In this document: piece by piece, positions 11,182-29,500 of the stretch | How the letters are laid out: the number at the start of each line of letters is the position of its first letter | Numbering within the stretch: position 1 is the stretch's first letter | Assembly: GCA_048939995.1 (NCBI GenBank) | Contig: JBHLOY010000013.1 | Coordinates: 13,333 to 77,332, forward strand | Direction of reading: 5' to 3' | DNA: 64,000 bases | From: Promethearchaeota archaeon | GTDB taxonomy: Archaea > Asgardarchaeota > Lokiarchaeia > Sigyniarchaeales > SOKP01 | Notes under the pieces: model-generated | Told to the model about the DNA's origin: nothing | What the model saw: only the letters and a program-made list of their open reading frames with translations | Database searches by the model: none | Made by a program: the position numbers and the translations under genes

Positions 11182-13257
11182 ATGTTGAAATCATATCATT
11201 ATTTTGTCCTAATATTACCACTATTACTTATCAGCTTGATTTTTATTAATGTTTTTATTGTTTGGTTTCCTACTAAGGAACCAATCAAGATTATCGATAA
11301 CATATACAATAATGAAAATATAGAATTGATTAACTCATCAGTACAGATAAAAAATGAAACAATTAATACAGATGAGACATGGAGTGGAAATATACTTATA
11401 ACTCGAAGTATCACGATATCTAAGGGAGCTGCACTAAGTATTTTGCCCGGGACGATTATCAGATTTAAACATTATAGAGGATATAAATTTCCAGATGCAA
11501 GGTTAAGCCTTTTTGTTGCAGGGACTATAAAAGCCTTAGGAACATCAGATCAGCAGATTTGGTTTACTTCTGATGCTGAACCACCAATAAATGGGGATTG
11601 GGATGGAATCTATATGAATGGTACTACAGATTCTATATTTAATTATACAATTGTGGAATATGGACTCGTAGGTATTGTCCAGTTCCACTCTGAATCTATA
11701 GTTGCGAATTCAATAGTGAGATGGGTTAATACAGAAGGACTTTATGCAGAGTATTCCAATGTGGAGTATGTGAATAATACTTTATATGGAAATGGGTATC
11801 ACGAAATTGCTTTAGAACAATTTAATAACGCTACTGTTAGAAGGAATATATTTAAAAATGGAATTGTTGCTTTTCACTCAGAAAATTCAGAAGCATATCT
11901 TAAACGAAATTACTTTACTAATTATAGTGGAGACATTGTATCGATTGCCGCTCATTCAAATGCAACTTTAGAAGAAAACATTTTTGATCCATCTTTAACG
12001 AGTCCTCAAGTCACAGTGACCCCAAATGCCAATGTTACTTTAATTAATAATGATAATGGAACTATGACTTTACCAATTCCAGTATTTGATTATCTGGACA
12101 TGCAAAACTATACATTGGGTTATATACCAGGGGATCCAGAAGATCAATACCCATATGTTTATGACACTATAGATGAGACGAGAAAGGTTATAAAAAGAGT
12201 AGGATTAGGTCTAAGTTTTGGCTGGGCTTTAGAATTTGCTATGGGTTACCTTTGGCGATTTGACTTTTGGAATGCTCAGATTGGGAGTGCATTAAATTTT
12301 ATAAGAATGGAACCAGATACGGGGAACTATATTGAAATCAAAAATGATGTCATTGAAAATGCGCGAGGCTTAGCTTGGGATGGAGAATATTTTTTCGCAT
12401 ACGATCATAGTCAACTCAAGATTTTCAAATTTAATATCTCTGGGAACGAAATCTTAATTAATGATTTTTTCGATCTACCCAAAAAAGAAGAAGGTGGCGT
12501 ACAAGGATTGACTTCTGATGGAGAATTTCTCTATATTCCAAGTAGAGGGGGAGCGCTAGTAAGAAAAGTAAATAAGTCTGGAGCAATTATTGACGAGATT
12601 AACATTACTGGAGAAGGTGTTAGTGGGGGGCTAGTATGGACAGGGACACATTTTTGGGGCGTTACGGGGGGAGGAAATTTAACCAAATATACACATGATT
12701 GGCAAATCGTTGGGCAATTTTATCCGGTAGCCGATGGGACATGGGCAATTGCTTGGGATAGAGATTATTTATGGGCCCTTCAGAGAACGTGTGAAAGCTG
12801 GGTTGATGCAAAAATGTTCCAAATTAAGCCATTAATATCAACTAAAACTGATTATTTAATAATAAAAGATGACAGCCCTCATACAATAACAGTTAAATCT
12901 AATTCCTCTGATTATGGACTTCGGTTTAATGAATCCCGGGATGAAATTAGCTTTGAAATTTACGGTAGAGCTGGGAGCAAAGGAAAATGTGATGTTTCTA
13001 TTCCCAAAGCATTAGTACTTACACCATACGCGGTATCTATTGATGGAATTCCAATCGACTTTAGTATAAGCACCAAGGAAACACAAATTGTAGTTCATTT
13101 CGAATATCAGCATAGTTATCATGAAATTAAAATTCACTTGGAAATTGAATCAACAACACCTACTATTCCGTGGATTCACATTCTTCCTTATTCTATGATC
13201 TCTATTGCGATATTTAATGTTTGGGTGTATTATAAGAGGAAAAAAAGTTTTGAATGA
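11182..13257 (+). CDS. Surface protein: right-handed beta-helix plus beta-propeller-like region, C-terminal TM anchor
   Basis: N-terminal TM; GTIKALGT..QIWFTS..GDWDGI beta-helix; GLAWDG/GLTSDG/AIAWD repeats; TM-KRKK end. Confidence 0.7.
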   Translation: MLKSYHYFVLILPLLLISLIFINVFIVWFPTKEPIKIIDNIYNNENIELINSSVQIKNETINTDETWSGNILITRSITISKGAALSILPGTIIRFKHYRGYKFPDARLSLFVAGTIKALGTSDQQIWFTSDAEPPINGDWDGIYMNGTTDSIFNYTIVEYGLVGIVQFHSESIVANSIVRWVNTEGLYAEYSNVEYVNNTLYGNGYHEIALEQFNNATVRRNIFKNGIVAFHSENSEAYLKRNYFTNYSGDIVSIAAHSNATLEENIFDPSLTSPQVTVTPNANVTLINNDNGTMTLPIPVFDYLDMQNYTLGYIPGDPEDQYPYVYDTIDETRKVIKRVGLGLSFGWALEFAMGYLWRFDFWNAQIGSALNFIRMEPDTGNYIEIKNDVIENARGLAWDGEYFFAYDHSQLKIFKFNISGNEILINDFFDLPKKEEGGVQGLTSDGEFLYIPSRGGALVRKVNKSGAIIDEINITGEGVSGGLVWTGTHFWGVTGGGNLTKYTHDWQIVGQFYPVADGTWAIAWDRDYLWALQRTCESWVDAKMFQIKPLISTKTDYLIIKDDSPHTITVKSNSSDYGLRFNESRDEISFEIYGRAGSKGKCDVSIPKALVLTPYAVSIDGIPIDFSISTKETQIVVHFEYQHSYHEIKIHLEIESTTPTIPWIHILPYSMISIAIFNVWVYYKRKKSFE

Positions 13258-13358
13258 AAATTGTTATAAATTTTTTTTTTTTTAAAATAGATACTAGTTC
13301 CAATCCACATATATATTAAAAGCAGTGGATTCTTTTATCATCAATTTTTTTTTTTATT

Positions 13359-14159
13359 ATGACAGAAAGAATGCCCATCCTTTTCATAGGGCATGGTTCA
13401 CCTATGAATATCATCTCCGATAATGCATTTACACGCAGTCTGAAAACTTTAGGGATAAGTCTACCTAAACCAAAAGCTATTCTAGTAATCTCTGCTCATT
13501 GGTTGACTTCTGGGACTAAAATATTATGTAATAAACATCCAGAAACGATACACGATTTTTATGGGTTTCCAGAAAAGCTTTATCAGCTCCGTTATTCAAG
13601 TCTAGGACAACCAGAATTAGCAGGTAAGATCAGCCAAAAGTTTGATAATTATAATGTTAAGTGTGACTATAATTGGGGATATGATCATGCTTCTTGGGCA
13701 ATTTTAAAACATATGTATCCCGAAGCAGACATCCCTATGATAGAGCTAAGCTTAGATTATGACTTTAATAGTTGGCGAATCAAACCAATTGAATACCATT
13801 ATCAATTAGCTCAAAATTTAGCATTTTTGCGGAAGGAAGGGGTTCTGATCATAGGAAGTGGAAATATTGTACATAACCTCAGGATGATTGATTTTAATGT
13901 TAATGCCCCAGTTATGGATTGGGCAAAAGAACTCGATGCACATGTTAAAGAGAAAATAATAAATAAAGATCATAATAATCTGATTCATATTGAAAAATTA
14001 GGAGTAAATGCGCGATTAGGAATTCCCACTTGGGATCATTATCTTCCTATGATTTATATTTTGGGGCTTCAGGAGGAGGAGGACCCAATAAAATTTGTGC
14101 ATGAAGGATTTCAACACGGTTCAATCTCGATGCGATGTTTCCAAATCGGTATTGAATGA
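13359..14159 (+). CDS. ygiD: 4,5-DOPA extradiol dioxygenase (LigB family)
   Basis: FIGHGSPMN, ISAHW, TIHDFYGFP, YDHASW, GSGNIVHNL, DHYLP. Confidence 0.93.
   Translation: MTERMPILFIGHGSPMNIISDNAFTRSLKTLGISLPKPKAILVISAHWLTSGTKILCNKHPETIHDFYGFPEKLYQLRYSSLGQPELAGKISQKFDNYNVKCDYNWGYDHASWAILKHMYPEADIPMIELSLDYDFNSWRIKPIEYHYQLAQNLAFLRKEGVLIIGSGNIVHNLRMIDFNVNAPVMDWAKELDAHVKEKIINKDHNNLIHIEKLGVNARLGIPTWDHYLPMIYILGLQEEEDPIKFVHEGFQHGSISMRCFQIGIE
14002..14159 (+). repeat. Left copy of 158-bp imperfect direct repeat (ygiD 3' end)
   Basis: Aligns without gaps to 21085-21242. Confidence 0.9.
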
Positions 14160-14195
14160 TGTCTTAAAAAAATAGTTTCCATTAATCACATACTT

Positions 14196-14756
14196 TTATT
14201 TTAATTTTGTTGGCCTTCTTTTCCAGAGTTTAATCGATTCGAGAATAAATACTCCTGTTCCAAAAATTAAGAAAATTAAAAAAAGAAAACCTCCTGGATG
14301 CGTGATAAAATCATCACCATAGACGCTTGCTAAAAAAAGATATGCTATAAAACCAAGAATATAAAAAATTAAGTAAAGCGAAAATCGAGGGACCATAATA
14401 TATCCAACTCGGATGTAAAATCCCAACATTCCTTTTTTTGATTCCTCACAGGGATAATACTTTCCATTTATTTCGTTTTTTTTTATGATTCCAGCTCTAG
14501 ATAACTTTTTTATTTGATATGAAACGGTTCCGGGAGAAGAAAAGTTCAATGATTTCTGAATTTCTCTAACTCCCGCATGTTTATGAGTTAGTATATACCA
14601 ATAGATTTGAAGTGCTTTACCTCTTAATACTTTTCCTTTATTAAAATCGGGATTTATTTCAATATTTGATTTTAACTCATAGATTTCATTTCGGAACGCA
14701 GACTCAGACGATATTTCAAATTTTTCCTCCTTACTTTCAGCTTCTTCAGAAGTCAA
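14196..14756 (-). CDS. Membrane-tethered winged-helix regulator (wHTH + 2 TM)
   Basis: GVREIQKSLNFSSPGTVSYQIKKL...GKY wing, then two hydrophobic helices; TTG start overlaps the TGA of the upstream SBP gene. Confidence 0.82.
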   Translation of the reverse strand: MTSEEAESKEEKFEISSESAFRNEIYELKSNIEINPDFNKGKVLRGKALQIYWYILTHKHAGVREIQKSLNFSSPGTVSYQIKKLSRAGIIKKNEINGKYYPCEESKKGMLGFYIRVGYIMVPRFSLYLIFYILGFIAYLFLASVYGDDFITHPGGFLFLIFLIFGTGVFILESIKLWKRRPTKLK

Positions 14757-16873
14757 GTTAAATCAAACTCTTTTTTAACATTTTTCATTATTTTTCGATT
14801 TTTAATAATAGTTAAACTAGCTAAGACTATTATTGGCCCAATAATAATAAGAATGATTGGTAAATAAACAAAGGTTAATAAAATTAAGTTTTTCTGACCT
14901 AGACGAAGAATCGCATTTCCTTTTAGTTTAACTTCGGAAAAACGGAGATTAGGATTTGAAGAGACAACTTCTAACTTATTCCAAGACTGAGTTGTATAGT
15001 TCCATTGAAACACTTCTTGTTCTTCGAGGGGATTAGAATAATCTATTTCATCTAAATCGTAATAACAACGTAATAGATATTGAGATTTAGATCTATTAAC
15101 TTGGAGTTCATAAAATTTACCTGTTTCTTGTTGATTAGAGATGAGATTACTTAAATCATGGGTCATTGTCATATTCCCTTCAAAATGTTGGCTTTCCAAG
15201 GCTATAACTCCATCTGTAAAGGGTAAATAAATTGGATCAGAACTAACTTCTATTTTTTCCATTTTATAGATATCTATATCTTGTAATTGAACCGTATAAT
15301 TAAAAATAATTCGTCCCATCCTATTCATCTGAACAAATGGAGTTACCTCCTTTGCTCTTAGATATATCCCTTTTGTTTCCTGTATTAAAAGAAGAGGAGC
15401 ATCTTCCTGAGCGAGCCGTTGCACCTGAAAGTAATAATATTCACGTTCTTGCCGAATGGGCGTTTGTTGACCTAAAGATGTAAATAAATCAGCCTCAGAA
15501 TTTGAATACCTCCCATAATTAATATCCCCTGAAGTATGAAGAAGTCTTCTGGATAGGCTAGGATCTGTTATAGGAACCCATCCAACAACAAAAAGATCAA
15601 AATTACCTGCTTTGAGGTTTTGTCTCGTACCATTGATAGTTGTGCAATGGATACCCACAAGATTGAGATCTGCTTTAATCGCGCTTACTTTCTCATAGGA
15701 ACGTTCAAATCCTACGAGCTCGATATCAAAGCGATATCCATCTCCAAGTCTGGGATATCCCGAACTATCTAATATAGTATTTGCTAGATCAACATTATAT
15801 GGATATCCCTGAATTGATTTATCATTGTATAAATCTCCAGAATAAATAACACTACGAAGTGGGTGCACTCCCTTGTTTAGATTTTCAAAATAGTAATTGG
15901 TAAACATTTGCTTATTCACAGCATAATTAATCGCTAACCTTACATTTTGGTCATTTAGAATCGGGTGAAGATGATTAAAATAACCATATTGAATTCCATC
16001 AATAGCCAAAGATTCTTCCCAGTAAGTATCATTTTCGGGTAATGGATTAATACCAATTGTAGTGAACTCTCCTTCATGATTCTCAACAGCAGCTTGAAAA
16101 TTTCCCATGGATCCATATTTGATATATTGAATTTCTTCAAAAGGAGGAACCCCACGGAAATATTGGTCGTTTCTGATAAATTTTTGAAATGTTGAATTAC
16201 TCGAAATCTTATCTAAATAATATGGCCCAGTTCCAATTGGTTCAGTAATGTTCGGACCTCCACTAAAACTGTTTGGGGAATAAATCCCACACAATGCAGC
16301 CTCTTGATATATAAAGGGAGCATAGGATTGGTTGAAGTTAATAGACACTTTATATTCGTCTAAAATTTCAATAGATTCTAATGGCATCTGACTAAAATCT
16401 ATAAATGGATCAGCTACATATGCAGGATGGGTGGGATCAATAAATCGATCATAAGTGAATTTAACTGAAGTTGCATTAAATTTTGTACCATCACTGAAAT
16501 TGACATCATCTCGGAGTGTAAAAATCCAGTTCCTACTATTATTTGTGACCACCCATTGTTTAGCTAATGCTGGTATAAGTTCTCCTGTATTAAATGAATA
16601 TTCAACCAAAGGATCGAAAATTATGGTAGCTAAAAATGAAAATTCACGAATCATATCATAATTAATCCCAAAATCTAATTGTGGTGGCGAAATGTACCTT
16701 AGTACTTGAGGGGGGTCGAATTTCGCTGATGATTTAATCTCCTGAGAATTTATTTGTACAGAATCACTTTCTACAATTTTTTCAATTGACATATTTATTG
16801 GAATTATCTGTATTGTAATTAGTACAATAATACAAACTAAAGCAATACGGTTATATTTCATACTATTAGACAC
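14753..16873 (-). CDS. Family-5 (DppA/OppA-like) solute-binding protein with C-terminal TM anchor
   Basis: PALAKQW..WIFTLRDDVNFSDGTKFNATSVKFT, PIGTGPY, VRLAINYAVN; extra C-terminal domain + TM. Confidence 0.9.
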   Translation of the reverse strand: MSNSMKYNRIALVCIIVLITIQIIPINMSIEKIVESDSVQINSQEIKSSAKFDPPQVLRYISPPQLDFGINYDMIREFSFLATIIFDPLVEYSFNTGELIPALAKQWVVTNNSRNWIFTLRDDVNFSDGTKFNATSVKFTYDRFIDPTHPAYVADPFIDFSQMPLESIEILDEYKVSINFNQSYAPFIYQEAALCGIYSPNSFSGGPNITEPIGTGPYYLDKISSNSTFQKFIRNDQYFRGVPPFEEIQYIKYGSMGNFQAAVENHEGEFTTIGINPLPENDTYWEESLAIDGIQYGYFNHLHPILNDQNVRLAINYAVNKQMFTNYYFENLNKGVHPLRSVIYSGDLYNDKSIQGYPYNVDLANTILDSSGYPRLGDGYRFDIELVGFERSYEKVSAIKADLNLVGIHCTTINGTRQNLKAGNFDLFVVGWVPITDPSLSRRLLHTSGDINYGRYSNSEADLFTSLGQQTPIRQEREYYYFQVQRLAQEDAPLLLIQETKGIYLRAKEVTPFVQMNRMGRIIFNYTVQLQDIDIYKMEKIEVSSDPIYLPFTDGVIALESQHFEGNMTMTHDLSNLISNQQETGKFYELQVNRSKSQYLLRCYYDLDEIDYSNPLEEQEVFQWNYTTQSWNKLEVVSSNPNLRFSEVKLKGNAILRLGQKNLILLTFVYLPIILIIIGPIIVLASLTIIKNRKIMKNVKKEFDLT

Positions 16874-16950
16874 TTCTTTTTTTATAATATTTCAATAATT
16901 TGCTTTTAATTGTTAAATAGTTCATTTTTTTGCTGTTTTATATAATTATC

Positions 16951-16980
16951 TTTTGAACAATATGTTCAAAATGTTGTACA
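16951..16980. promoter_or_regulatory. Palindromic operator upstream of the SBP-wHTH pair
   Basis: TTTTGAACA-ATA-TGTTCAAAA then N3-TGTACA; next to a TATA-like TTATATAAAA on the - strand. Confidence 0.7.
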
Positions 16981-17124
16981 CTTATTTCTTTTATAAGATT
17001 ATGATCCCTCTTAATAAATTTAGAGAATAAAGGTATGACACAAGGAGATTTTTTTGTGCCAAATCCATTTTGAGAGATTTTGTAAATTAAAATAAATTCC
17101 ATTTTATCACTCCTCATTTGTATT

Positions 17125-19839
17125 TTATTTTGACTTTGATGGCCTAGTTTTCCAAACTTTAATCGATTCAAAAATAAACACGGCAGTTCCAAAAATCAAG
17201 AAAACTAATAGAAGTATACTGCCTGGATTGGTAATGAAGTTATCGCCATATATACTAGCAAAAATTAGGTACCCTATAAAGCCTAACACATTGATAACTA
17301 AGTATAATGAAAATCGAGGTATCATTAGAAAACCAATATGAGTGTAAAACCCTAAAATTCCTTTTTTTAATTCTTTATTCACGTAATATTTTCCGTCTTT
17401 ATCGCTTTTTGATATAATTCCAGTTTTTAATAACTTATCTATTTGATAAGATACGGTTCCTGGCGATGAAAACTTTAATGATTTCTGGATTTCTCGTACT
17501 CCGGCACGACTATGAGTCAAAATATACCAATAAACTCGAAGCGTTTTACCTTGTAATACTTTTTCTGGGCTAACATTAAGAGGCTTAGTTTTAACTTTAG
17601 TTAATATCTTTATATGAACGAGTCTCTCTTTAACTTTGGACCTTGGTAGTGTCTTTCTCTTTCCCTTGGTTAGTTTTTTCCGTTGGACGTACCATTCAAT
17701 AGATAGAATACCAACAAAAATGAGGGAAACACTTATTAAAATGCCAAATTGTAAAATTAAATAATAACCTGGAATTAATGGACCTTCAGTATCGATAGAT
17801 TCAGGTTTTTCATAATAGTCAGTAATTGTATTGTTAATAAATATGTTCCCAATTACATTGTTATAACACGAAAGTTCAAGATATATCCCAATCTCGTTGT
17901 TACTTACTATATTTCCTAAAACTAAATTGGATTTACTCACATTTAAACCAATACCTATCCAAAAATTATTATCTACGGTATTCAAATATATAGTATTATT
18001 ATTGCTATCTTGTAAAGCTATACCAGCAAGAACATTATAGTTTGCAATGTTTCTAGTAATATTGTTATTTTTGCTGTTAATTAAGCCTATTCCAACAATA
18101 TCATTGTTATTTACGATGTTTCCCGATATTATATTATTATTGCTGTCTTGTAAGACTGCTCCAGCCAGACCATTACAGTTTGCATAATTCTCAGAAATCA
18201 GATTTCCACTACTATTTTCAACGAGTATTATACCAACTAGATTATTATCTACGATATTTTTTGTAATGTTATTATAATGACTATTTAATACAAATATCCC
18301 ATTACTGTTGTTGTTGATAATGTTTCCCATTATAATGTTATTAATATGATTATAAAAGCCTATTTGAATCCCATTAGTATTATTATTTACAGTGTTACCA
18401 GAAATAATGCAATTATCTCCGCGCAGGAGTATCCCATTCTCACTATTATTTACCATATTTCCCGAAACAATATTATTATCGCCTAGGATTCGAATACCTT
18501 CTCCATAAAAGTTATGAACACCATTTGAGGAAACTTTGTTTTTCAGGATGTTATTCTTATTCCCTTTAATTTCGATGCCATTATATTCGTTATATTTTAC
18601 CGTATTTTCTGTGATAATAGTTTCATTTCCATCAAATATACTTATTCCAACCCCATCATTATTAAAGGTATTTCCAGAGAGCATGATGTTATCGCAATAA
18701 AATAATTTTATCCCATTGTTAAAATTGTAATTTGCGGTGCTTCCTGAAATACTATTGTTATTACTCTCAATTAAGCTTATTCCGTTATAACCATTACTTG
18801 CGTTAATTCCTAAAATAGTGTTGTTATTAGAGAAATATAATGCAACTCCCGTATTGGCATAGGAAACATCCAAATTTGAGATATTTGAATTATTACAATT
18901 AACTAAAATAACTTGACCAGCATTAGTAAAATTGTTTGAACTTAGACTTTTTTCATTCTTATAATAGTATAAAGGTTTGCCATTAACTAAATTTGAATTG
19001 TCTATATCGTGGGAATCTAATTCGTCAATTGATCCTCTTACCTCTAACCCATTATTATTTAAGATATTTTTGGACACTGTATAATTTACACCTTCTCTGG
19101 CAATAATTCCGCCCCAGCGATTATTTATGACAAAATTTCCTGAAATTGTTGTACTTTCGCTCTGTTCTAATAAAATTCCATTAAGATTATTACTTAGAAA
19201 GTTTCCAGTAAGATTATTGTTCCCACCACCATTTAATGATATTCCATAACCGTTATCAGTTAATGAGTTCCCCTCAATATTGTTTCTATTACTATTAAAC
19301 ATGATATTTATCCCTATCTCGTTTTTATTTACGTCGTTTCCTAAGATACTGCTATCATTACAATTTTCCAAGAATATCCCATTATAATTAAGTGAAAGAT
19401 TGTTATTAATTAATTGAGCATTACTAACATTTGACAATACAATTGCCCCTCCCCAACCATATTCATAACGATCAACAGCTAATGAGTTATAAATGGTACA
19501 ATTTTCAATTTTAAAAAAAAATCTTGAATTCTCAATCAAGATACCGTAGACCATTCCGTCGACCTCAATTATAAGATCTTCTATAATATAAGGATCGGTA
19601 AAATTCCCATAACCTGTGACTATTTTCGCAATCTTCGTTTCAGACCAATTATTATTGATGTGAATAATTCTTGATACTTTTGAGATTTTCAAAGTTTTGC
19701 CATCTAAGTCAATATCATCAAGATTTTCTAAATTTTTCTTGTTATCTCCGTAATTATTTATAAGGTGGATTTTTGTTGAAAATACAAAAATAAATCCAAA
19801 TATGGCTATTAAATTTATTATTTTTATGATTCTTTTCAT
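17125..19839 (-). CDS. NosD-type beta-helix ectodomain - TM - wHTH - 2 TM fusion (candidate transmembrane one-component regulator)
   Basis: Signal peptide, many NNxxGIxL repeats, NLVNGKPLYY, IPGY-TM-basic segment, then ~145 aa about two-thirds identical to 14196-14756. Confidence 0.85.
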   Translation of the reverse strand: MKRIIKIINLIAIFGFIFVFSTKIHLINNYGDNKKNLENLDDIDLDGKTLKISKVSRIIHINNNWSETKIAKIVTGYGNFTDPYIIEDLIIEVDGMVYGILIENSRFFFKIENCTIYNSLAVDRYEYGWGGAIVLSNVSNAQLINNNLSLNYNGIFLENCNDSSILGNDVNKNEIGINIMFNSNRNNIEGNSLTDNGYGISLNGGGNNNLTGNFLSNNLNGILLEQSESTTISGNFVINNRWGGIIAREGVNYTVSKNILNNNGLEVRGSIDELDSHDIDNSNLVNGKPLYYYKNEKSLSSNNFTNAGQVILVNCNNSNISNLDVSYANTGVALYFSNNNTILGINASNGYNGISLIESNNNSISGSTANYNFNNGIKLFYCDNIMLSGNTFNNDGVGISIFDGNETIITENTVKYNEYNGIEIKGNKNNILKNKVSSNGVHNFYGEGIRILGDNNIVSGNMVNNSENGILLRGDNCIISGNTVNNNTNGIQIGFYNHINNIIMGNIINNNSNGIFVLNSHYNNITKNIVDNNLVGIILVENSSGNLISENYANCNGLAGAVLQDSNNNIISGNIVNNNDIVGIGLINSKNNNITRNIANYNVLAGIALQDSNNNTIYLNTVDNNFWIGIGLNVSKSNLVLGNIVSNNEIGIYLELSCYNNVIGNIFINNTITDYYEKPESIDTEGPLIPGYYLILQFGILISVSLIFVGILSIEWYVQRKKLTKGKRKTLPRSKVKERLVHIKILTKVKTKPLNVSPEKVLQGKTLRVYWYILTHSRAGVREIQKSLKFSSPGTVSYQIDKLLKTGIISKSDKDGKYYVNKELKKGILGFYTHIGFLMIPRFSLYLVINVLGFIGYLIFASIYGDNFITNPGSILLLVFLIFGTAVFIFESIKVWKTRPSKSK

Positions 19840-20099
19840 TTTACTTTCTCTAAATATTATCCATGTAGGGTAATTGTTAAGTTAAGTAAAGTGGTACTGC
19901 TATATTCTAAATAATTCGGTACTTTTCTATTTTATAAAGTTTTACTAAGTTTTTAGTATAATAAATGTTGTTATTATAAAACTGTAATTGGTTTCAGTTT
20001 GAATCTAATTCATATTATTAAGTTGAGAATTTAAGCTAATTCCTTTGATATAAAAAAAAATGTAAATAATATTTATTTTTCATTATGTGCAAGTATCGT

Positions 20100-20816
20100 T
20101 TACGTATTTGATTTTTTTAACTTTTTACCGATTAGGAATATCACAATCGAAAGTGTCCCAACTAGAATTAATATACTATATCCTGGAATTCCTGATATTA
20201 GTGGTCCAGTTAGGGCATTAGTACTAACAAAAATTGCTTTCTTCCAAAATCCGCTATATTGAAATGTACCATTTAAGAAAATTCCTGTGCTTTTTTCATA
20301 CCAAACTGCGCTTCCATTAGAATCCTCTAATTTCCATACTTCTATTTGGCCATAACCAGGCATAGTCCAATTTAATTCGGCAGTAACATTAAAATTTTGG
20401 TCTCCGCCTGAATAAATAAATATTTGAACAATATCATTAAGTGAAATATTAGTTAAAATCCTAGTCCATGTATGAGACCCAGCAACGGGACTCGGCAGGT
20501 CTGTATTTGATACAATTCTTGAGCTTAATTCCTCATCCCAAGAACCTTGTTCTGCTGGGGTTCCTAAAGTTCCCTCTCCTAAGAACCATATAACATGATA
20601 AACATCATCTGAAACTCTGCTGAATTCGATGTTAGCTTCTTGTGTTTCAAATATGTGAAAAGAATCAGAGTGGATATAATTAACGTACATCCCATCAAAA
20701 ACTCCTGTTGTACTAGAATAACCCAATGCTATAAAATGAGAAAAGAATACAAATGAAATTATCGACACAAGAATATACTTCATGATTTTCTGCCTATATT
20801 TGCCTTTTTCTTTCAT
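20100..20816 (-). CDS. Secreted protein with IPGY-TM-basic (Loki-CTERM/PGF-CTERM-like) anchor
   Basis: Signal peptide; WYEKSTGIFLNG; ends GIPGYSILILVGTLSIVIFLIGKKLKK. Confidence 0.8.
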   Translation of the reverse strand: MKEKGKYRQKIMKYILVSIISFVFFSHFIALGYSSTTGVFDGMYVNYIHSDSFHIFETQEANIEFSRVSDDVYHVIWFLGEGTLGTPAEQGSWDEELSSRIVSNTDLPSPVAGSHTWTRILTNISLNDIVQIFIYSGGDQNFNVTAELNWTMPGYGQIEVWKLEDSNGSAVWYEKSTGIFLNGTFQYSGFWKKAIFVSTNALTGPLISGIPGYSILILVGTLSIVIFLIGKKLKKSNT

Positions 20817-20900
20817 ATTTTTTACCTACTTTACTCAATTTAGTGGTTTTTTTATAAATTTCTTAAATATTTGTTTTGATTTCTATTTCTTAAATCTATT

Positions 20901-20930
20901 TTTTGAACGCCCCGTTCAAAATTCTGTACA
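20901..20930. promoter_or_regulatory. Second copy of the palindromic operator
   Basis: TTTTGAACG-CCC-CGTTCAAAA then N3-TGTACA; same geometry as 16951-16980. Confidence 0.7.
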
Positions 20931-21084
20931 TTCGCATAACATAGTTTTAAGTTTCAAATTGAAACTTATTACTGTTTCAAAGTATAGTCTTGAAAGTTAT
21001 CCCAATTTAATAAAAAGGTATTAACTTAAAAAAAAGAAAAACTACAATGTAATTATTTTATTCTTTATATTTCTTTACTCTTAT

Positions 21085-21242
21085 GAGTAAATGCATATTT
21101 AGGAATTCCTAACGGGGATCACTATCTTCCTATGATTTATATTCTGGCGCTTCAAGATGAGAAAGACGCGATAAAATTTATGTATGAAGGCTTTCAACAT
21201 GGTTCTATTTCAATGAGATGCTTCCAAATTATCATTGAATAA
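21085..21242 (+). pseudogene. ygiD 3' fragment (right copy of the direct repeat)
   Basis: VNAYLGIPNGDHYLPMIYILALQDEKDAIKFMYEGFQHGSISMRCFQIIIE*; 41/51 aa identical to the YgiD C-terminus by hand count; no start. Confidence 0.9.
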
Positions 21243-21721: not shown

Positions 21722-22010
21722 TTTAAAACACTGCTTTTAATACTTATACTTATTGTAATTTAATTTATATAATTAACCCTTGCAATAGAACTTTTTCAGT
21801 AATTCTTTTTAACTATTTAATTGAGCTTTGCTCATGGATTTTCAATGAGAGTGAGTATTAATGAAAGAGACTAATGAACCTAAAAAATTGAAACAATAAA
21901 AGATTTACTCAAATTTATATAATCATTTGGTTATAATAATATCAAACAACCAATTAATCCGTAATTATAATTTTTCTGATCTACAATCATTTTCTTTTGA
22001 TTTATACATC

Positions 22011-23558
22011 ATGTCAATAAATAGAAATAAATTATTAATGGAATTATTCGCGAATTTCATACAGGCAAATAAGGAAGTTGAAGCTATTATAGTTTCCGAT
22101 AAAGATGGATTAATAATTTCCGGAGAACGAAGAAAAGATGTGGATATAGAGTTAGTTTCGATAATGACTGCGGTGGTTAACCCTGTTATTGAGCGATTTC
22201 GTGATGAATTTTCCTATAAGAAATTTGGGACCGCAAGTTTTGATACTGAAAATAATCGTCTTTTGTTCATCACTATAACAGAAAATGTAACATTAACTTT
22301 AGTTATTGAAAATCTTGGCTCGATTGAGAAAATAGCCCCCTATGCGTATTTTCTTGCTGAAAAAGTGGCACAGATTATAGTTGCAACTAATGAAGATCTA
22401 ATTGAGGTATCAATTCCTAATTTTGATTATAAAACTGAAGGATATTATGGAAGTGATGCTCAACTTTTTCAAATTGGTTTAGAACCAGGTGGAGAATATA
22501 GATTTAAATTTATAGTTATAGGTGACCATGAAGTTGGTAAGACTTCAATTCTACGTAGATTTGTAGAAGGGAGATTCTTAGTAGATTATCGTACTACTAT
22601 TGGATTGAACGTTTTGACTCATAATTTCGAATTTTTTGGCAACAAAATTAACGTATTTCTCTGGGATATAGGAGCTCAACAATATTTTAAAAGATACCGT
22701 AAAGTTTATTACAAAGGTGCACAAGCTGCTTTTATCATTTTTGATTTAACAAACAAGGATTCTTTTTATAACGTAATGAATTGGTTTAATGAATTGAATG
22801 AGTTTAAGGAACATGAAATCTCAATAGTAGTCGTTGGAAATAAAAAAGATTTAGAACAGCAAAGAGAAGTTGATTATGAAGAGGCAACTACTTTAGCTGA
22901 AATGTTATCTGAAAAATATAACAAGAAAATTTCTTATATTGAAACCAGTGCTTTAACAGGAGAGAATATTGAAGAAGCATTTGGAATTGTATCCTATCAT
23001 TTTATAATGCTAAGCAAAGAATTTGAGGAAAAAAATTTAAGAGAAAAGATTTTTACTGAAATTAATTCGGTATTAGATACACGAAATTCACTTTCAATTG
23101 CATTTATATCAAAAAATTTCCAAAAGAATCCTATTATAATGCTTTTAAAAGAGATAGAACCTTTAGGATTGTCTTTAAAAATGGAAAAAAAAGATAAAGT
23201 GATCTATCAATTTGCAAATGGATTAACCTTGGAAAGTTACAATTTCGATTCAATGAAAGTTTCTGATTCTGATGGAGCTTTTGTAATTTTTGATGGGAAG
23301 GATAGAGATTCCATTGACCCGAAATGGAATAGTATTATATTACAAATTTTAAAAACAATCAAGGATAACACTGTGATTTTAATCGGTATAATTACTAAAA
23401 AAGATGTAAATTGGTCAAAAATGATGAGTGAGTTTAACTTTTATACAAAGTTAGAAGCAAAGCAAATCTCGTATTTTGTATTTAAAATTGACTCCGATTC
23501 TAAAATAGAATTATATGAACACATAAATACTATGTTCAATACTATTAGGAATCTTTAA
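22011..23558 (+). CDS. Roadblock - Rab-like GTPase - degenerate G-like domain fusion
   Basis: AIIVSDKDGLII (roadblock); GDHEVGKTS, TTIG, WDIGAQ, NKKD, ETSA; ATG 22011 preferred to TTG 21927. Confidence 0.88.
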   Translation: MSINRNKLLMELFANFIQANKEVEAIIVSDKDGLIISGERRKDVDIELVSIMTAVVNPVIERFRDEFSYKKFGTASFDTENNRLLFITITENVTLTLVIENLGSIEKIAPYAYFLAEKVAQIIVATNEDLIEVSIPNFDYKTEGYYGSDAQLFQIGLEPGGEYRFKFIVIGDHEVGKTSILRRFVEGRFLVDYRTTIGLNVLTHNFEFFGNKINVFLWDIGAQQYFKRYRKVYYKGAQAAFIIFDLTNKDSFYNVMNWFNELNEFKEHEISIVVVGNKKDLEQQREVDYEEATTLAEMLSEKYNKKISYIETSALTGENIEEAFGIVSYHFIMLSKEFEEKNLREKIFTEINSVLDTRNSLSIAFISKNFQKNPIIMLLKEIEPLGLSLKMEKKDKVIYQFANGLTLESYNFDSMKVSDSDGAFVIFDGKDRDSIDPKWNSIILQILKTIKDNTVILIGIITKKDVNWSKMMSEFNFYTKLEAKQISYFVFKIDSDSKIELYEHINTMFNTIRNL

Positions 23559-23592: not shown

Positions 23593-26500
23593 TTATCTAG
23601 AGAAATATTCCTTTAACTCATGCTTAACTGAACCTTTTCCTTTGAGATCATAGAGTAATTCATCAGTACTATGAATAATTACCTCACTTAATTCGTGAGT
23701 CTCACGTAAGATATCAAATTGTCCTTTATAATACAGATCGATAATCTCATTAAATGCCTCCTCATATACTCCTTTCAATCCTATTGATTGAATAAATGCC
23801 TTATAATGATTGATTCTAACATTTTTCATAGGACCTTGAAATGAAAAAGACTCATTATTTTCTAGCAATTTAATAACAACAATGATTAAGAGCGTGTTTG
23901 CATTCTGAAAATCTTTACTTGATTTGATAATATCTTCATTAGATGTATCCTCAGTGTAAATTATTTGAATCGATCTAATTCTGTCCCTAATTGATGGATC
24001 TATATTTAGGAACGAAACTTGATCATCAAAAAGAATTAATCCATGGATTTTATTTTGAATATCATCATAGATTTGAGGATTGGAATAATATTTAATACCA
24101 ATTTCATCAAAATACTTCGTCAATAAATCGTTAATGCAGGAATAAACAAGTTCTACTTCTCCCATAACTAGTGGTGTTCCTGTTATTTCTAATTTTCGGT
24201 CTTGTTCATGTTTAGATTCTTGATTGTCAACATACATTTTAAGATTTTCAGAGACTATCTTACTTTCATTATATAGTTCAAGTGATTTTGAATAATCTCC
24301 AGATATTGCAGCTTTTTTGGATTCAATCTCATATTGATCCTTCAAATAGTTAAGACCTTTAATTGCGATATCGATTTGTTTTTGACGGTAAAAATCTGCA
24401 TTTTGAGAGTTTCCAAGAATCTCTTCAATAATAATAATTTCACCTGCAAATCCTGCTGCTTTGACATAATCTTTCTCTTCTGTTAATTTGTTAACATAAG
24501 CAATTACTTTCTCTCTTCTGGCAAGTAGATCTGCTTCAGTCTTATCTTTGAGCGTTTCATAATCTAATAAACTTAATTCTTCATAAATTTTCAACTTTGC
24601 CTTAGTTACTGGCTGCTTTTCTGATATTTGAATACCTATTTCCTTCTTCTTACTCTTTGATTTTTTTAGCACTACAATTCCTACTACCCCACCTATAGCT
24701 GCTCCTATTACAACAAATATTATCCATAATGGAAATTCAGATGGTTGAGAAGTGGATGTTATAGAAAAGCTATCTGTTGCGGCAGGACTCTGATGACCTG
24801 CACCATCAATTTGATATAAAAAGTAATAATAAATTCCTGGTTGAAGAGATTCCATATACTCATAATAATTACCCGTTAAGTTTATTGCAAACACGAATCC
24901 AGGGGTAGCTAAAGGATTTGCTTCATTATCTATAATTAATCTATACTTAATTATCCCAGAAGGATCGGAACCATCTTGCCATTCAAATATTAAAGTACCA
25001 CTTACAGCTCCTTGGGGAGCCTGTATTAACGACGGTGCTGGAGGAGCAATTGTATCTTTATATAAAACTATTAGCACAGGGTCGCTCAAATGATTAAGAG
25101 TATCATTTGCATAGATATAAACATAAAATCTTCCTTCTGGTAAACTATTCCAAATTAAATTATTGAATGGTTGGTTAATATTATTTCCCAACAAGATGTT
25201 AGTTGTGTTTACTTGATACCAAATTAGATCTAGATTAGCATCTGTAGCTAAAACATTGATAATAGGTGCTGCTCTGCAGTAAGTGTTATTCAACGGGAAA
25301 TTTAATGCAATTGAAGGTGCTATTGTATCTTTTATTATCGTTATCTCATCAAATCCAATAACTCCTAAAGTATTATTTATATAAAAACTAATCGTAATAG
25401 TACCATCTGATTTAGCGTCCCATGCTAATTGATTTATAGTCCCAGTTAGCCCTGTAAATGTATAATTTACTATTCCATTATCTAAAGTATACCAACTTGT
25501 ATCTAGATTGCTTCCACTTATATTAACAGCATAATTCGGCGCTGTATTACCATACACACCGTCTGAAATAGGAGTATTAATCATTATCATGGGAAAGAAG
25601 ATATCTTTATAAACAATAACTTCTGCTGTTCCTAAATTGCCTACTGTATCATTAGCATAAAATTTGATCATTATTGTTCCATTACCAACTTGCTCCCAAA
25701 CACTCTGAGCGATTGCTCCTGTCCATGTGTAATTATTAGTAACAATAGTTCCATTGTCCAATTGATACCATTCATTATCTAAATTAGCGTCATTAATATT
25801 AATAGTAATGCTTGGAGGTGAAATCCCAAACAAGTCATAATTATTTGGTTCTGTAATAATTATAGTAGGAGTAATTGAATCTCTATTGATTACCACACTC
25901 GCAGCATCCCAGTTACCAGCAGAATCATTTACATAAAATAGTATCGTAATAGAACCTTGACCTGCAGTATTCCATGCCGTAGAATCGATCGTTCCGCTCA
26001 ATGCTCCTGTGAAGTTATTTAGACCTCCATCAAGTGTGTACCAAATCCTATCTCTATTCGATTCAGTGATAGAAAGAGTATAACTTGGAGGAAGGCTACT
26101 GAACCATGCTCCAGGTAATGGTGAATCGATACTATCTATTGAAGGATTAACGGTATCTCTATAAATTGCTACGCTCGCAGTATCCCAGTTACCCGCAGAA
26201 TCATTTACATAAAATATAATTGTAATGGAACCTTGGCCTGCATTATTCCATGCTAAAGAGTTGATTGTTCCGCTTAATGCTCCGGTATAGTTATTTAAGC
26301 CTCCATCAAGCGTATACCAAATCCTATCTCTATTCGATTCAGTGATAGAAAGACTATAACTTGGAGGGAGGCTACTGAACCATGCTCCAGATAATGGTGA
26401 ATTGATACTATCTATTGAAGGATTAATGGTATCTCTATAAATTGCTACGCTTGCAGTATCCCAGTTACCCGCAGAATCATTTACATAAAATATAATTGTA

Positions 26501-29500
26501 ATGGAACCTTGGCCTGCATTATTCCATGCTAAAGAGTTGATCGTTCCGCTTAATGCTCCGGTATAGTTATTTACCCCTCCATCAAGCGTATACCAAATCC
26601 TATCTCTATTCGATTCAGTGATAGAAAGACTATAGCTTGGAGGGAGACTACTGAACCATGCTCCAGATAATGGTGAATCGATACTATCTATTGAAGGATT
26701 GATAGTATCTTTATAAATTTGTACGGTATCAGAGGTTTCAATGCCAAAATTGTTGTTTAAATAAAATGTAAGAGTAATAGAACCTTGACCAGCATTATCC
26801 CATGCTGTGGAATCAATTACACCAAACCAAGAATTAGATTGATTAGCATTACTAGTAATAGTATAATTGTTAAGTCCATTATCAAGAGTATACCATATAG
26901 AATCACGATCGTTCCCGCTCACATAAACATCATAATCTGGAATAGATCCAAACCATTCGGCAGTACTAGGTGAATTAATAGAAATTGATAAATCTGAAGT
27001 TTTTGTTACTCCTACACTTGCAGAATCCCAATTACCCAAGGAATCATTTACAAAAAATGTAATCGTGACAGCACCTAAACCAGCATTGCCCCATGCGATA
27101 TAATCAATTGTTCCACTCGTTGCTCCCGTGTAGTTGTTTAAACCATCATTGAGGGTATACCAAATCTCATCTAAATTCGCTTCGGTAATGGAAAGACTAT
27201 AACTTGGTGGGGTTGAATGGTTTGAGCCAGATGAAGGTGAATCGATACTAACTGAAGGTTTGATAATATCTTTTCTAACTATTACTTCTTCATAATTAAT
27301 ATTACCTAATGTATCATTTGCGTAGAATCGAATTATTACTGTTCCATTTGGTCTTCCGTTCCACGTAGTCTGATCGAGACTCCCTATTGCAGCGACAGGA
27401 GTGGAATTAGTGGTTCCACCATCTAAGCTATACCAAATAGAATCTAAATTGGGATCTGTAACTGTAAGATTATAATTAGGCGCCATCGATCCAAATAACT
27501 CATTCGGGTTAGGAGAGTTAATGTTTATATCTGGTGCTGTGGTATCTTCACCTACTTGATATTCAGCTCCAATTGAGTAAAAACTGCTTGGGTCATATTG
27601 ATTGTTGTATTCAGTAGCAATCCAATCTACTGAACGAGCAATATTAGATAATCGAACTTCATCCATGATACCTTCTAAGTTATCAGGACTTCTAGCAATA
27701 GTTAGAGAATCTATTATTGTTTCAATCATTTCTGAAAAAGTGGCCGTATTTGGATCTTGAGTCCCATTAATAAAAATTTTCATTGTATTGCCAACTCTAA
27801 CACATGTGATACTAACCCATTTATTAAGCGAAATCAATGTCTGACTCTTTAAACTAGTTGAACCAATCCCATTTAATCTAAAATAAATAGCTCTATCCCT
27901 ATAAATAAAAGAGGAATAAGCATCAGTATAAATACCTTTGGTTACTGTATCAGGATCATTACTTACATCATATGCCATTACCCAATATTGGATAGTTAAA
28001 TTCTCGGTCAAATCTAATGAAACATCATTTCCACAATCAACATAATCATCGATTCCGTCAAGTTCTAGACTCCCATCAAGTCTTCCAGGAATTTGATCTC
28101 CAGGATCCATCGTTCCATACGAAGTACCATCATTATTGTTGGTTGTGGAATCCTTTATTGGATTTGTAGGATCTTCAGATAAATGCCATACTCCAACATA
28201 ATTAGTATCCCATACTCCATCGGGGTTTTGAATTGAATACATGGTTGAATTTCCATAATACATATAGATTTTAGTGTCTACCATGGGTGAAAGAGAAGGA
28301 ATGCGTACCCAAGATACTAAAAATGCATGTGTTGTATTATGATCTCGATTAAATAATTCAATTTCATGATCAAGCCAATTCTTACCATCATAAAAAGCTA
28401 TATCGTTACCATTAGATTGAACATCAGTATGTAAGTCCATATCATAAAGAGATATTAAAATAGGAAAATTAGTGAGATTACTCGATCCAGAGATTTTAGT
28501 ATGATCAATTATTATTTCTTTATAATATTTAAAGCTATTCAAAGAAGGTCGAAGTAATTCTTCAGTGCTTAGTGTAAGTGTTGGTTCTGGCTCTACAAAT
28601 ATCCTTAAGTAGATATCATCCACAAATAGCGTGTTAAATTCATTAGGTGATGCCCAATAAATACCTGTGGAGAATTTATCGGTTGGTTCAGAACCTAAAT
28701 TAATCGAAGTGTTATGAATCTCTAAGTTACCATCTAACCATAGCTTAGCCAATCCATAACTACTGGAAACGTTAACTTGTACATCCAATGTATGCCAGGT
28801 ACCCTTAGATATAGTGTTGGTCTCTAAATAACCATAGGCTTCTCCTGCAACAGCATTCCACATATATAAAGTCATATCATCATTTATAGTAACACTAATC
28901 AAATTTTGCCATACTGTGGCTGTGTCAACAAACTGTATAACTGTTACCCTGTCTGTAGTACTAAAACTAGGATCAAGATAAATATGTACGTGGGCATAAA
29001 GGCTTGCTTCATCTGGAAAATCCTCAAAAACCATAGCCTGAGGAGTAGTAACATTGTCCATATCACACTTTGCAGCATAATTGCCTGTGTGAACCTGATC
29101 AGTTGATGCTATGATTGAATCCCCTACAGATCCAGTACTATTTCCATCCCATCCGTTCAAATTACCGCTTTCGAAACCATCATAAAAAAAGAATATATTA
29201 CTTGGGTCAACCAACGGGGAATTAGCTAATTTATTGCCGTAGTATAGATAATAATTATTATCAAATGACAAGGCTTGTATTGGTTTCTGGGTTTTAAACC
29301 ATATTTTAGTTGATTCATTGTTCCATGAGGAGTCAAGATCCAACATTCTATCCAGAACATTCCACATAGTGCCATTCCAATATACTAATCGGATATCATC
29401 ACCATCTGCTTGACTTTTACCCTTAATGACCAGATCAGCGTGATCGAAAGTCAAAGAAACTGTATAGCCAGAAGGTATATCAGAACTACCAGTTGTCACA

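Follow-up and report, generated by a model that had tools for sequence, protein, structure and literature searches.

A putative membrane-coupled sensor–regulator cassette with exchangeable surface partners in an Asgard archaeon

The analysed window comprises 64,000 nucleotides of contig JBHLOY010000013.1 from a Promethearchaeota archaeon (positions 13,333 to 77,332). Between two direct repeats it contains four genes, all on the reverse strand. They encode a 238-residue secreted protein that is not assigned to a family and is a putative target of the regulator (20100–20816), a 904-residue fusion of NosD with a winged helix-turn-helix (wHTH) and two transmembrane (TM) segments (17125–19839), a 706-residue family-5 solute-binding protein, SBP_bac_5, which is the partner and putative sensor (14753–16873), and a free wHTH-2TM regulator of 186 residues (14196–14756). 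The stop codon of the partner gene overlaps the TTG start of the regulator gene by 4 nt, in line with the earlier note on this DNA. The C-terminus of the 238-residue protein scores 22.1 bits as a fragment and 17.5 bits within the whole protein against the Loki-CTERM model NF033507 (threshold 19.9). Cargo genes of the same cassettes carry this type of anchor, unlike the tail of the partner.

The free regulator is formed of an extension of about 40 residues, a winged helix (residues ~45–103), a TM hairpin, and a C-terminal tail. The outer loop of the hairpin is short (about ten residues) and acidic, and the tail is basic and predicted to be cytoplasmic. The wing is followed after no more than about 20 residues by the first TM segment (TM1), at the start of which Pro-Arg is invariant. 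The topology was assigned from hydropathy and charge, using the two hydrophobic segments, the acidic loop, and the basic flanks. The flanking charges support a cytoplasmic rather than an extracellular position of the wHTH in both the free and fused forms. The predicted model of the wHTH matches ArsR/MarR/MecI-type folds at Z-scores of about 10–11, and that of the free protein has no separate dimerisation domain. Several Pfam HTH models match the module, each below its own cut-off; LexA_DNA_bind reaches 20.4 bits (cut-off 23.7), and the TrmB and ArsR models score alike. The S24 autopeptidase domain of LexA is absent from the regulator, the C-terminal part of which is the TM hairpin. Neither a Foldseek comparison with the PDB (E ≤ 0.001) nor a profile search of PDB sequences gave a match. 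The TM part is hardly probed by fold searches, and therefore a new fold is not claimed.

The 3.75-Mb genome holds only two copies of wHTH-2TM, the free one and the one inside the NosD fusion. A search of 301 Asgard genomes found the family in 190; individual Hodarchaeales genomes have up to about a dozen copies, and Atlas clusters of the family extend to Bathyarchaeota and Nitrososphaerota. It includes four-TM and solitary members, which have no adjacent partner and no nearby operator.

The fusion protein contains an N-terminal hydrophobic segment (residues 4–22), a NosD/beta-helix domain detected by Pfam, a TM segment (694–712), the wHTH, and two further TM segments, as the earlier note had described. 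It includes the entire regulator together with the N-terminal extension. Its module (residues 760–904; 17125–17562, reverse strand) is identical to the free copy at 98 of 145 positions (68%), which agrees with the two-thirds reported before. The fusion is not an assembly chimera because it recurs, with the same gene order, in several other assemblies; furthermore, a contig of run X2, which belongs to a second study, covers positions 13296–18289 almost letter for letter, including the fusion junction. Other fusions in the family have the module followed by a TM-ectodomain-TM arrangement (L117–L119, P0136) or preceded by an ectodomain and a TM segment (P0204). The first TM segment of the NosD fusion scores 4.8 bits against the motif of the partner tail and thus lacks it. 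For the Rosetta-stone argument put forward earlier, the fusion is therefore weaker evidence than a tail that is common to unrelated ectodomains. The identification of this TM segment, or of the additional hairpin found in four-TM forms, with the partner tail was rejected, as the scores do not exceed 12 bits. Its interpretation as a Loki-CTERM signal is not supported either, since the model does not match it despite an IPGY look-alike. We infer that the fusion is a derived one-chain version of the system, or else that it feeds another input into the same operators.

The partner protein contains a signal segment, a family-5 solute-binding domain, a conserved linker domain of about 130 residues, and a C-terminal TM segment with a tail. 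CBP of Vibrio cholerae is also a family-5 solute-binding protein. The closest relatives of the solute-binding domain with solved structures are distant peptide and nickel binders, at about 80 bits, and the stretch around GWVPITDP differs from partner to partner. There is no permease near the gene in this cassette, as was stated before. However, this carries little weight: the genome has 13 family-5 genes, many of them likewise without a nearby permease, including eight on one contig (C17) far from Opp/Dpp permeases. The argument from an "orphan" binding protein was therefore rejected.

The tail of the partner (14756–14911, reverse strand) follows the pattern aromatic-x-P, about 20 residues, and N, here P672 and N692, and ends with a short basic stretch. 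It is common to four unrelated ectodomains: SBP5, SBP1, SBBP propeller, and NosD. Across Loki-type and Hodarchaeales genomes and all four folds, the asparagine is invariant, the proline nearly so, and their spacing is fixed. A hidden Markov model of the tail, trained on tails of Hodarchaeales solute-binding proteins only, recognises six partner tails from the other folds (SBP1, SBBP propeller, NosD) at 20–42 bits, whereas the highest score among 340 further anchored proteins encoded in this genome is 17.9 bits. The mean identity among partners is 31% in the tail, 23% in the signal segment, and 37–49% in the solute-binding domain. The Loki-CTERM model (NF033507) does not match the tail of the solute-binding protein. 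When the module and the partner tail were modelled as a complex, the prediction scored 0.09 against a mark of 0.32, a value that bears neither way on binding.

All 39 strong matches to the tail model (E < 1e-7, 46 genomes), 13 of which lay outside the training alignment, are encoded directly upstream of a wHTH-2TM gene; the pairs are not independent, because the tail-paired modules form one clade. Conversely, a gene with the tail precedes 38 of the 39 short, close modules, and the remaining module is at a contig edge. The two genes overlap or are separated by a short gap across relatives, and some pairs 30–85 nt apart still keep the tail. Next to distant free modules, a co-oriented gene for an exported protein is found in 27 of 33 cases, compared to 3.6% for genes of this genome. 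These distant partners, which include DUF3160 and alpha-2-macroglobulin proteins, are anchored at the N-terminus and do not have the tail of the SBP type. The module thus recurrently adjoins, or is fused to, ectodomain genes, and the comparative genomics supports the proposal of the earlier note that interchangeable ectodomains are coupled to a membrane-bound wHTH. The tail-paired genes, more than the fusion, are the best new evidence for the putative split sensor–regulator.

The palindrome TTTTGAAC-N5-GTTCAAAA occurs in exactly two perfect copies in the genome, at window positions 16951 and 20901, and no copies with one mismatch were found. The earlier note had placed it upstream of two genes of the cassette, which is correct, but it forms only a part of a larger candidate operator with three half-sites, GTWC-N8-GAAC-N5-GTWC. 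The putative operator of the SBP–regulator operon (16955–16979, reverse strand) has the form GTAC-N8-GAAC-N5-GTTC, and a TATA-like box, TATATAAAA, begins 10 nt past its last half-site (16936–16944, reverse strand). The second putative operator (20905–20929, reverse strand) is located upstream of the gene for the 238-residue protein and has the same 10-nt spacing to a TATA-like box, TTTAAGAA (20887–20894, reverse strand). The last half-site abuts the BRE, and the whole operator is upstream of the TATA box. The archaeal activator TFB-RF1 has a site just upstream of BRE/TATA, like this operator (PMC5937170). A scan for sigma-70 promoters gave results at chance level, using a model unsuited to archaea.

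The operator is conserved before most cassette genes of relatives, and in distant Asgard families that have the regulator it is positioned 62–142 nt upstream of unrelated partner genes. In 28 genomes, all nine matches to the pattern precede cassette-type genes and occur only in genomes with tail-paired modules; a reversed-pattern control also gives nine matches, so the location is informative and the raw count is not. No operator precedes the fusion gene in this window. Sequences of its upstream region (19900–20090, reverse strand) were read by eye, and a similar sequence appears in front of the regulator-bearing gene in two other loci (L001 and L002).

On balance, we favour the reading that the cassette encodes an archaeal co-component transmembrane activator with coupling inside the membrane, which controls genes for secreted proteins in addition to its own operon. 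What was computed is the domain content, the charge topology, the one-to-one pairing with the tail, the swapping of ectodomains, and the conservation and position of the operator. The regulator would contribute the cytoplasmic winged helix and the TM hairpin, with almost no outer domain, and the overlapping upstream gene would provide the outer domain as a single-pass surface protein, here the family-5 solute-binding protein. The conserved TM segment and tail of the partner may dock onto the hairpin inside the membrane, and binding of a ligand outside the cell would alter the packing or clustering of the complex. Oligomers of the regulator, still bound to the membrane, would then occupy the three half-sites, which lie immediately before BRE/TATA, and switch on the regulator's own operon and the neighbouring genes for secreted proteins. 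The wHTH very likely binds this operator, and it is probable that the partner and regulator touch through the tail. Activation rather than repression is reasonably likely, and the odds are slightly better than even that the input is binding of a ligand to the ectodomain.

It is also conceivable, albeit rather unlikely, that the regulator binds the operator and senses a property of the membrane itself, with the partner being a stabiliser or a co-regulated target. The tail, the identity of which is modest overall, overlaps the start of the regulator gene and could therefore partly hitch-hike on the regulator's translation start. Four-TM and solitary members live without a partner, the N-anchored distant partners lack such a tail, and ToxS, TcpH, and PsaF have been proposed to be partly protective chaperones (PMC9214523). 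However, pairs 30–85 nt apart retain the tail, its asparagine and proline persist through Loki-type and Hodarchaeales genomes and four folds, and co-regulated cargo genes use the different, Loki-CTERM-type anchor. We give a still lower probability to the partner being an anti-activator, which holds the regulator inactive through the tail until the ectodomain binds a ligand or is clipped, or to the regulator being a repressor that blocks the BRE until the partner pulls it off the DNA. With the last half-site directly next to the BRE, a bound regulator might occlude TFB; LexA_DNA_bind gives the HTH a weak score, and the core GAAC-N5-GTTC is similar to a repressor site, the LexA box GAAC-N4-GTTC of Gram-positive bacteria (PMC3323433). 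Against this, the site is wholly upstream of the TATA box, as is the case for the activator TFB-RF1, and the LexA peptidase domain is absent.

In SREBP, a DNA-binding domain of the bHLH-Zip type is followed by a TM hairpin, and a separate membrane protein serves as the sensor. The wHTH regulator has a similar layout, with the invariant Pro-Arg at the start of TM1, and release of the wHTH from the hairpin by SREBP-like regulated intramembrane proteolysis can be envisaged. The wHTH is not a bHLH-Zip domain, however, and neither homology nor cleavage is indicated. Two cuts would be needed in NosD fusions and four-TM forms, where the wHTH has an anchor on either side; the model of the free wHTH shows no dimerisation domain of its own, and no protease gene was found in any cassette examined. 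Activation by proteolysis, which had been raised earlier, thus found nothing in its favour, and we regard it as highly improbable. Least credible is that the genes came together by chance in a mobile island or through an error of assembly. The duplicated 3' end of ligB flanks the block, and the site differs from the thiDN–thiC site of relatives, but the gene order and fusion repeat in several assemblies, the second-study contig spans the junction, and different families retain both the pairing and the operator. This reading has already been refuted as far as the fusion and the pairing are concerned.

The favoured membrane-coupled activator resembles VtrA/VtrC, ToxR/ToxS, and TcpP/TcpH, in which a membrane-tethered wHTH factor obtains its extracellular input, without a phosphorelay, from a partner encoded by a separate, overlapping gene (Kinch et al. 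2022, PMC9214523). In the bacterial co-component systems, the factor has an OmpR-type HTH, one TM segment, and a periplasmic domain; outside the membrane, this domain pairs with a lipocalin-like partner (PMC9214523). In contrast to VtrA/VtrC and ToxR/ToxS, the regulator here has two TM segments, a loop of about ten residues, a cytoplasmic C-terminus, and no outer domain, and its partner is C-terminally anchored and encoded upstream. Unlike the lipocalin-like partners, the ectodomain can belong to one of four or more unrelated folds; only the TM segment and tail are shared. The regulator also fits the description of transmembrane transcription regulators (TTRs), which combine a predicted cytoplasmic DNA-binding domain with at least one TM segment (Demey et al. 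2023, PMC10269533). As to control of transcription from within the membrane, which also characterises TTRs, what was observed is the shared distribution of operator and regulator. The TTR census, made by domain content, makes no mention of Asgard archaea, and the passages considered describe no partner genes or operator for the wHTH-2TM family (PMC10269533). Like the regulator, ArnR and ArnR1 of Sulfolobus acidocaldarius are archaeal, with an N-terminal HTH and two C-terminal TM segments, and they bind boxes upstream of BRE/TATA, the position at which the putative operator is found here (PMC6396743). However, ArnR is a one-component protein in which HAMP and sensing domains intervene between HTH and TM segments; in the cassette, the wHTH is followed directly by the hairpin, and a second protein carries the input domain. 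In Vibrio cholerae, loaded CBP activates the membrane-bound DNA-binding regulator ChiS (PMC11856585), as is proposed for the solute-binding protein here. Whereas ChiS, a large hybrid kinase, has a periplasmic domain and its activator CBP is soluble, the partner of the cassette is anchored and its regulator has no outside docking surface. The HTH is weakly similar to that of LexA, below the cut-off, and the putative operator has the GAAC half-site of the LexA box (PMC3323433); the cassette differs in the absent peptidase, the spacer of 5 instead of 4, the third half-site, the membrane anchor, and a putative local regulon of secreted proteins.

Little is known about how archaea transfer signals from outside the cell to transcription. 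The few membrane-bound archaeal regulators studied (ArnR/ArnR1) are one-component proteins. No description of this split sensor–regulator was found in the literature searched, which left most subscription journals outside. The cassette looks like an apparently undescribed route by which outside signals may pass directly to archaeal genes. Because all components, from the regulator and candidate sensor to the coupling motif and operator, come in one cassette, the model is directly testable with small constructs. [quoted passage not shown] Such receptors would constitute a signal transduction class of their own, expanded in Hodarchaeales, in which the adaptor is portable and the operator known. 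Should the tail prove to be a portable element for coupling, single-pass receptors would signal by TM–TM contacts in archaeal relatives of eukaryotes, and some "orphan" solute-binding and surface proteins of these genomes would gain a function.

The direct repeats that had been seen to bound the block are real, but they carry little weight. The left one (13998–14157, forward strand) is the 3' end of an intact ligB/ygiD dioxygenase gene, and the right one (21081–21240, forward strand) is an in-frame remnant of the same 3' end, 81% identical to the left; they are not short att or target-site repeats. None of the four genes between them encodes a recombinase (integrase or transposase) of an integrative element. 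At the ligB loci of relatives, neither a cassette gene nor the same flavodoxin is alongside in any of the ten inspected. In relatives, the cassette is at another site, between thiDN and thiC. A link to thiamine was rejected, as no operator was found before the thi genes, and neither this genome nor the Hodarchaeales loci examined show the link. A shallow contig from run X7 joins position 14059 to 21175 and was considered as an empty-site allele, but 32 unrelated letters separate the two parts; it fits a ligB gene of another organism.

A membrane-tethered regulator and its exported partner form a system that is real and conserved. It is apparently undescribed: the literature searched holds no account of the wHTH-2TM family, the partner tail or the operator, and the earlier note knew of no description of such a signaling system in Asgard archaea. 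The block in the window consists of four minus-strand genes, which encode a secreted 238-aa protein of unknown family (20100-20816), a 904-aa fusion with the order NosD-TM-wHTH-2TM (17125-19839), a 706-aa family-5 solute-binding protein (SBP; 14753-16873), and the free 186-aa module (14196-14756), whose TTG start shares 4 nt with the end of the SBP gene. The free module is 68% identical to fusion residues 760-904, and a search of the genome found no third copy. In the predicted model, the module begins with a winged helix of three helices, behind which come two long ones. Its first 70-90 residues match ArsR/MarR/MecI-type domains in fold searches, and hydropathy indicates two TMs. The inter-TM loop is acidic with basic flanks on both sides, and 11 K/R follow TM1 of the fusion; by the positive-inside rule, this charge pattern places the wHTH in the cytoplasm in both the free and fused forms. 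Close homologs are labeled Promethearchaeota, Lokiarchaeia, Hermodarchaeota, and Hodarchaeota, which identifies the host as an Asgard archaeon.

The fusion is not an assembly chimera. The same architecture occurs in L001, L006, L007, and P0014, and probably in the partial P0011, with 45-53% identity of the full-length proteins to that of the window, and a contig from a second study covers 13296-18289 with four differences. The fusion contains the entire free regulator, including its N-terminal extension, which fits an origin by the joining of two neighboring genes. In the tree, fused copies and free Loki-type copies fall into one unresolved group. The region upstream of the fusion (19900-20090) lacks the operator and resembles those upstream of L001 2628 and L002 3451; in two of the genomes, the gene behind this common region is the NosD fusion, and in the third it is a free module that has no partner.

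Of 301 Asgard genomes, 190 contain matches to a profile of the module. The same profile matches 609 cluster representatives in a global library, and ESM Atlas clusters include relatives from Bathyarchaeota, Thorarchaeota, Nitrososphaerota, and Thermoproteota. There are four architectures: free wHTH-2TM, ectodomain-TM-wHTH-2TM, wHTH-2TM-TM-ectodomain-TM, and 2TM-wHTH-2TM, which has no ectodomain. The third is found in P0136 and others, and in Hodarchaeales (L117:1950-3611, L118:2764-4416, L119:1-1277), where the ~350-aa ectodomain has no Pfam match and each fusion gene comes after a secreted-type gene. The four-TM clade (L010:1168-1932, L015:1495-2217, L026:1495-2232, L122:4417-5106) has no ectodomain, partner gene or operator nearby and is possibly a partner-independent membrane sensor; its extra hairpin was ruled out as a partner tail. 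A frameshifted, partner-less wHTH-2TM copy is present in a single-contig Hodarchaeales genome (L060:5176-5672), and several other copies have internal stops.

Every gene directly upstream of a close free module ends in the same tail motif: a TM between aromatic-x-Pro and an invariant Asn 20 residues on, then a short basic tail. A tail HMM trained on Hodarchaeales SBP5 tails only gave 61 bits for the SBP of the window and 20-42 bits for six non-SBP5 partners (SBBP propellers, NosD beta-helices, and one family-1 SBP). The top score among 340 other anchored proteins of the genome was 17.9, and Loki-CTERM anchors scored ~10. Tail and module were then sought separately in 46 genomes and the tables joined by coordinate. 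All 39 tail matches (E<1e-7; 26 in the training set, 13 outside) end about 80-160 nt before a same-strand module match. Conversely, 38 of 39 short modules (E<1e-53) have a tail gene upstream, the remaining one being at a contig edge. The tail is absent upstream of all twelve longer module forms (the nine inspected are four-TM), and two weak matches (29-30 bits) have no adjoining module. All tail-paired modules fall in one clade, outside which the tail is absent; the tail HMM also does not find it in TM1 of the fusion. Average tail identity is modest. The informative point is that the motif is kept across several ectodomain replacements, whereas the co-regulated cargo uses another anchor. Outside the clade, 27 of 33 free modules, which are related rather than independent, adjoin a co-oriented exported protein, compared to 3.6% of genes in the genome of the window. 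Their partners belong to several families, including DUF3160 and alpha-2-macroglobulin. Recurrent fusion and adjacency to ectodomain genes support the idea of interchangeable sensors. N-anchored DUF3160 proteins (L059:2923-5127, L049:2754-4955, L064:2754-4955) share operons with wHTH-2TM regulators and have the same operator. In a Loki-type genome, a large gene of the alpha-2-macroglobulin family comes immediately after a distant wHTH-2TM gene (L120:4373-9001).

The palindrome noticed upstream of two cassette genes has two perfect copies in the 3.75 Mb genome, both in the block. In an alignment, it proves to be part of a longer element, GTWC-N8-GAAC-N5-GTWC, and an AT-rich TATA-like box begins 10 nt past the last half-site. 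The cassettes of relatives have this operator in front of their SBP, NosD, kelch, and 235-aa genes. When a matrix trained on these Loki-type sites is applied to distant loci, the element turns up 62-142 nt ahead of the partner gene in families f9 (probably Thorarchaeia) and f28 (L044, L047, L049, L051-L053, L056) and in Hodarchaeales (L061, L064, L068, L071, L074, L077). Across all of these loci, the majority of partners show no relation to SBP5 or NosD. Scores there are 16-30 against shuffle maxima of 10-15 (up to about 20 elsewhere), the weakest being marginal. The site is absent in subfamilies with ASLRD or MTARE instead of GVRE in the first HTH helix. The exact pattern matches nine times in 28 family genomes, as does a reversed control, so the count is uninformative; every one of the nine real matches, however, is sited ahead of a cassette-type gene, and each of the genomes concerned has tail-paired modules. 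In one case this is a kelch gene whose contig is not that of the genome's regulators. This co-distribution indicates that the element tracks the regulator, not the cargo. In some Hodarchaeales loci, GTAC-rich half-sites form longer arrays (L126:5298-5721, L127:2033, L067:8355-8395), and one such array is either inside the regulator operon or downstream of it. The Gram-positive LexA box likewise contains GAAC (PMC3323433), and the module HTH scores below the LexA threshold; both are leads only.

Since the regulator has no outer domain, an external signal would have to enter through the partner, and because the TM and tail are the sole element common to different partners, they probably contact the regulator inside the membrane or on its inner surface. 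The presence of three half-sites hints at an oligomer that binds cooperatively and that the membrane hairpin and partner could organize. The operator sits where the activator TFB-RF1 binds, just upstream of BRE/TATA (PMC5937170); this favors activation, and with it a positive feedback on the operon of sensor and regulator, though the regulator may instead occlude the BRE. Proteolytic release, raised in the earlier note, is disfavored because the fused and four-TM forms hold the wHTH at both sides. On the output side, the putative targets (kelch, beta-helix, and the 238-aa protein) are surface proteins that carry Loki-CTERM-type anchors. This hints that what the system responds to is a polymer, solute or surface outside the cell. 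We consider this mechanistic chain as a whole somewhat probable, and a portable intramembrane adaptor able to make any ectodomain a receptor rather doubtful. The regulator fits the definition of transmembrane transcription regulators (PMC10269533). Co-component systems of enteric bacteria work similarly, but their single TM, periplasmic domain, and lipocalin partner are absent here (PMC9214523). ArnR shares the two C-terminal TMs, whereas its HAMP and sensing domains are missing from the regulator (PMC6396743). In ChiS/CBP there is a known case of a membrane-bound regulator being controlled by an SBP (PMC11856585).

The direct repeats reported to bound the block are real and 81% identical; one is the 3'-terminal 160 nt of ligB/ygiD, and the other is an in-frame remnant of that gene. 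In relatives, the cassette, variable in gene content, lies between thiDN and thiC, which are adjacent on another contig in the genome of the window. This arrangement indicates that the block has moved, probably by recombination involving ligB; there is no recombinase among its genes. Just outside the block, a 691-aa secreted protein (11182-13257) combines a beta-helix with additional repeats and is anchored at its C-terminus; no operator was found upstream of its gene. On the other side, a Roadblock-like domain and a small GTPase domain of Ras/Rab type are fused in a 543-aa protein (21927-23558), which also has a C-terminal extension. A 2356-aa secreted protein (23593-30663) has a receptor-like layout, with repeats inside the chain, a TM near residue 1980-2000, and a cytoplasmic part of ~350 aa. 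Elsewhere in the genome of the window (G000), contigs C17 (217157-284946) and C6 (104893-108740) carry ten N-anchored family-5 SBP genes without adjacent permeases, many in tandem, and several of them have as a divergent neighbor a gene for a secreted protein of ~333 aa.
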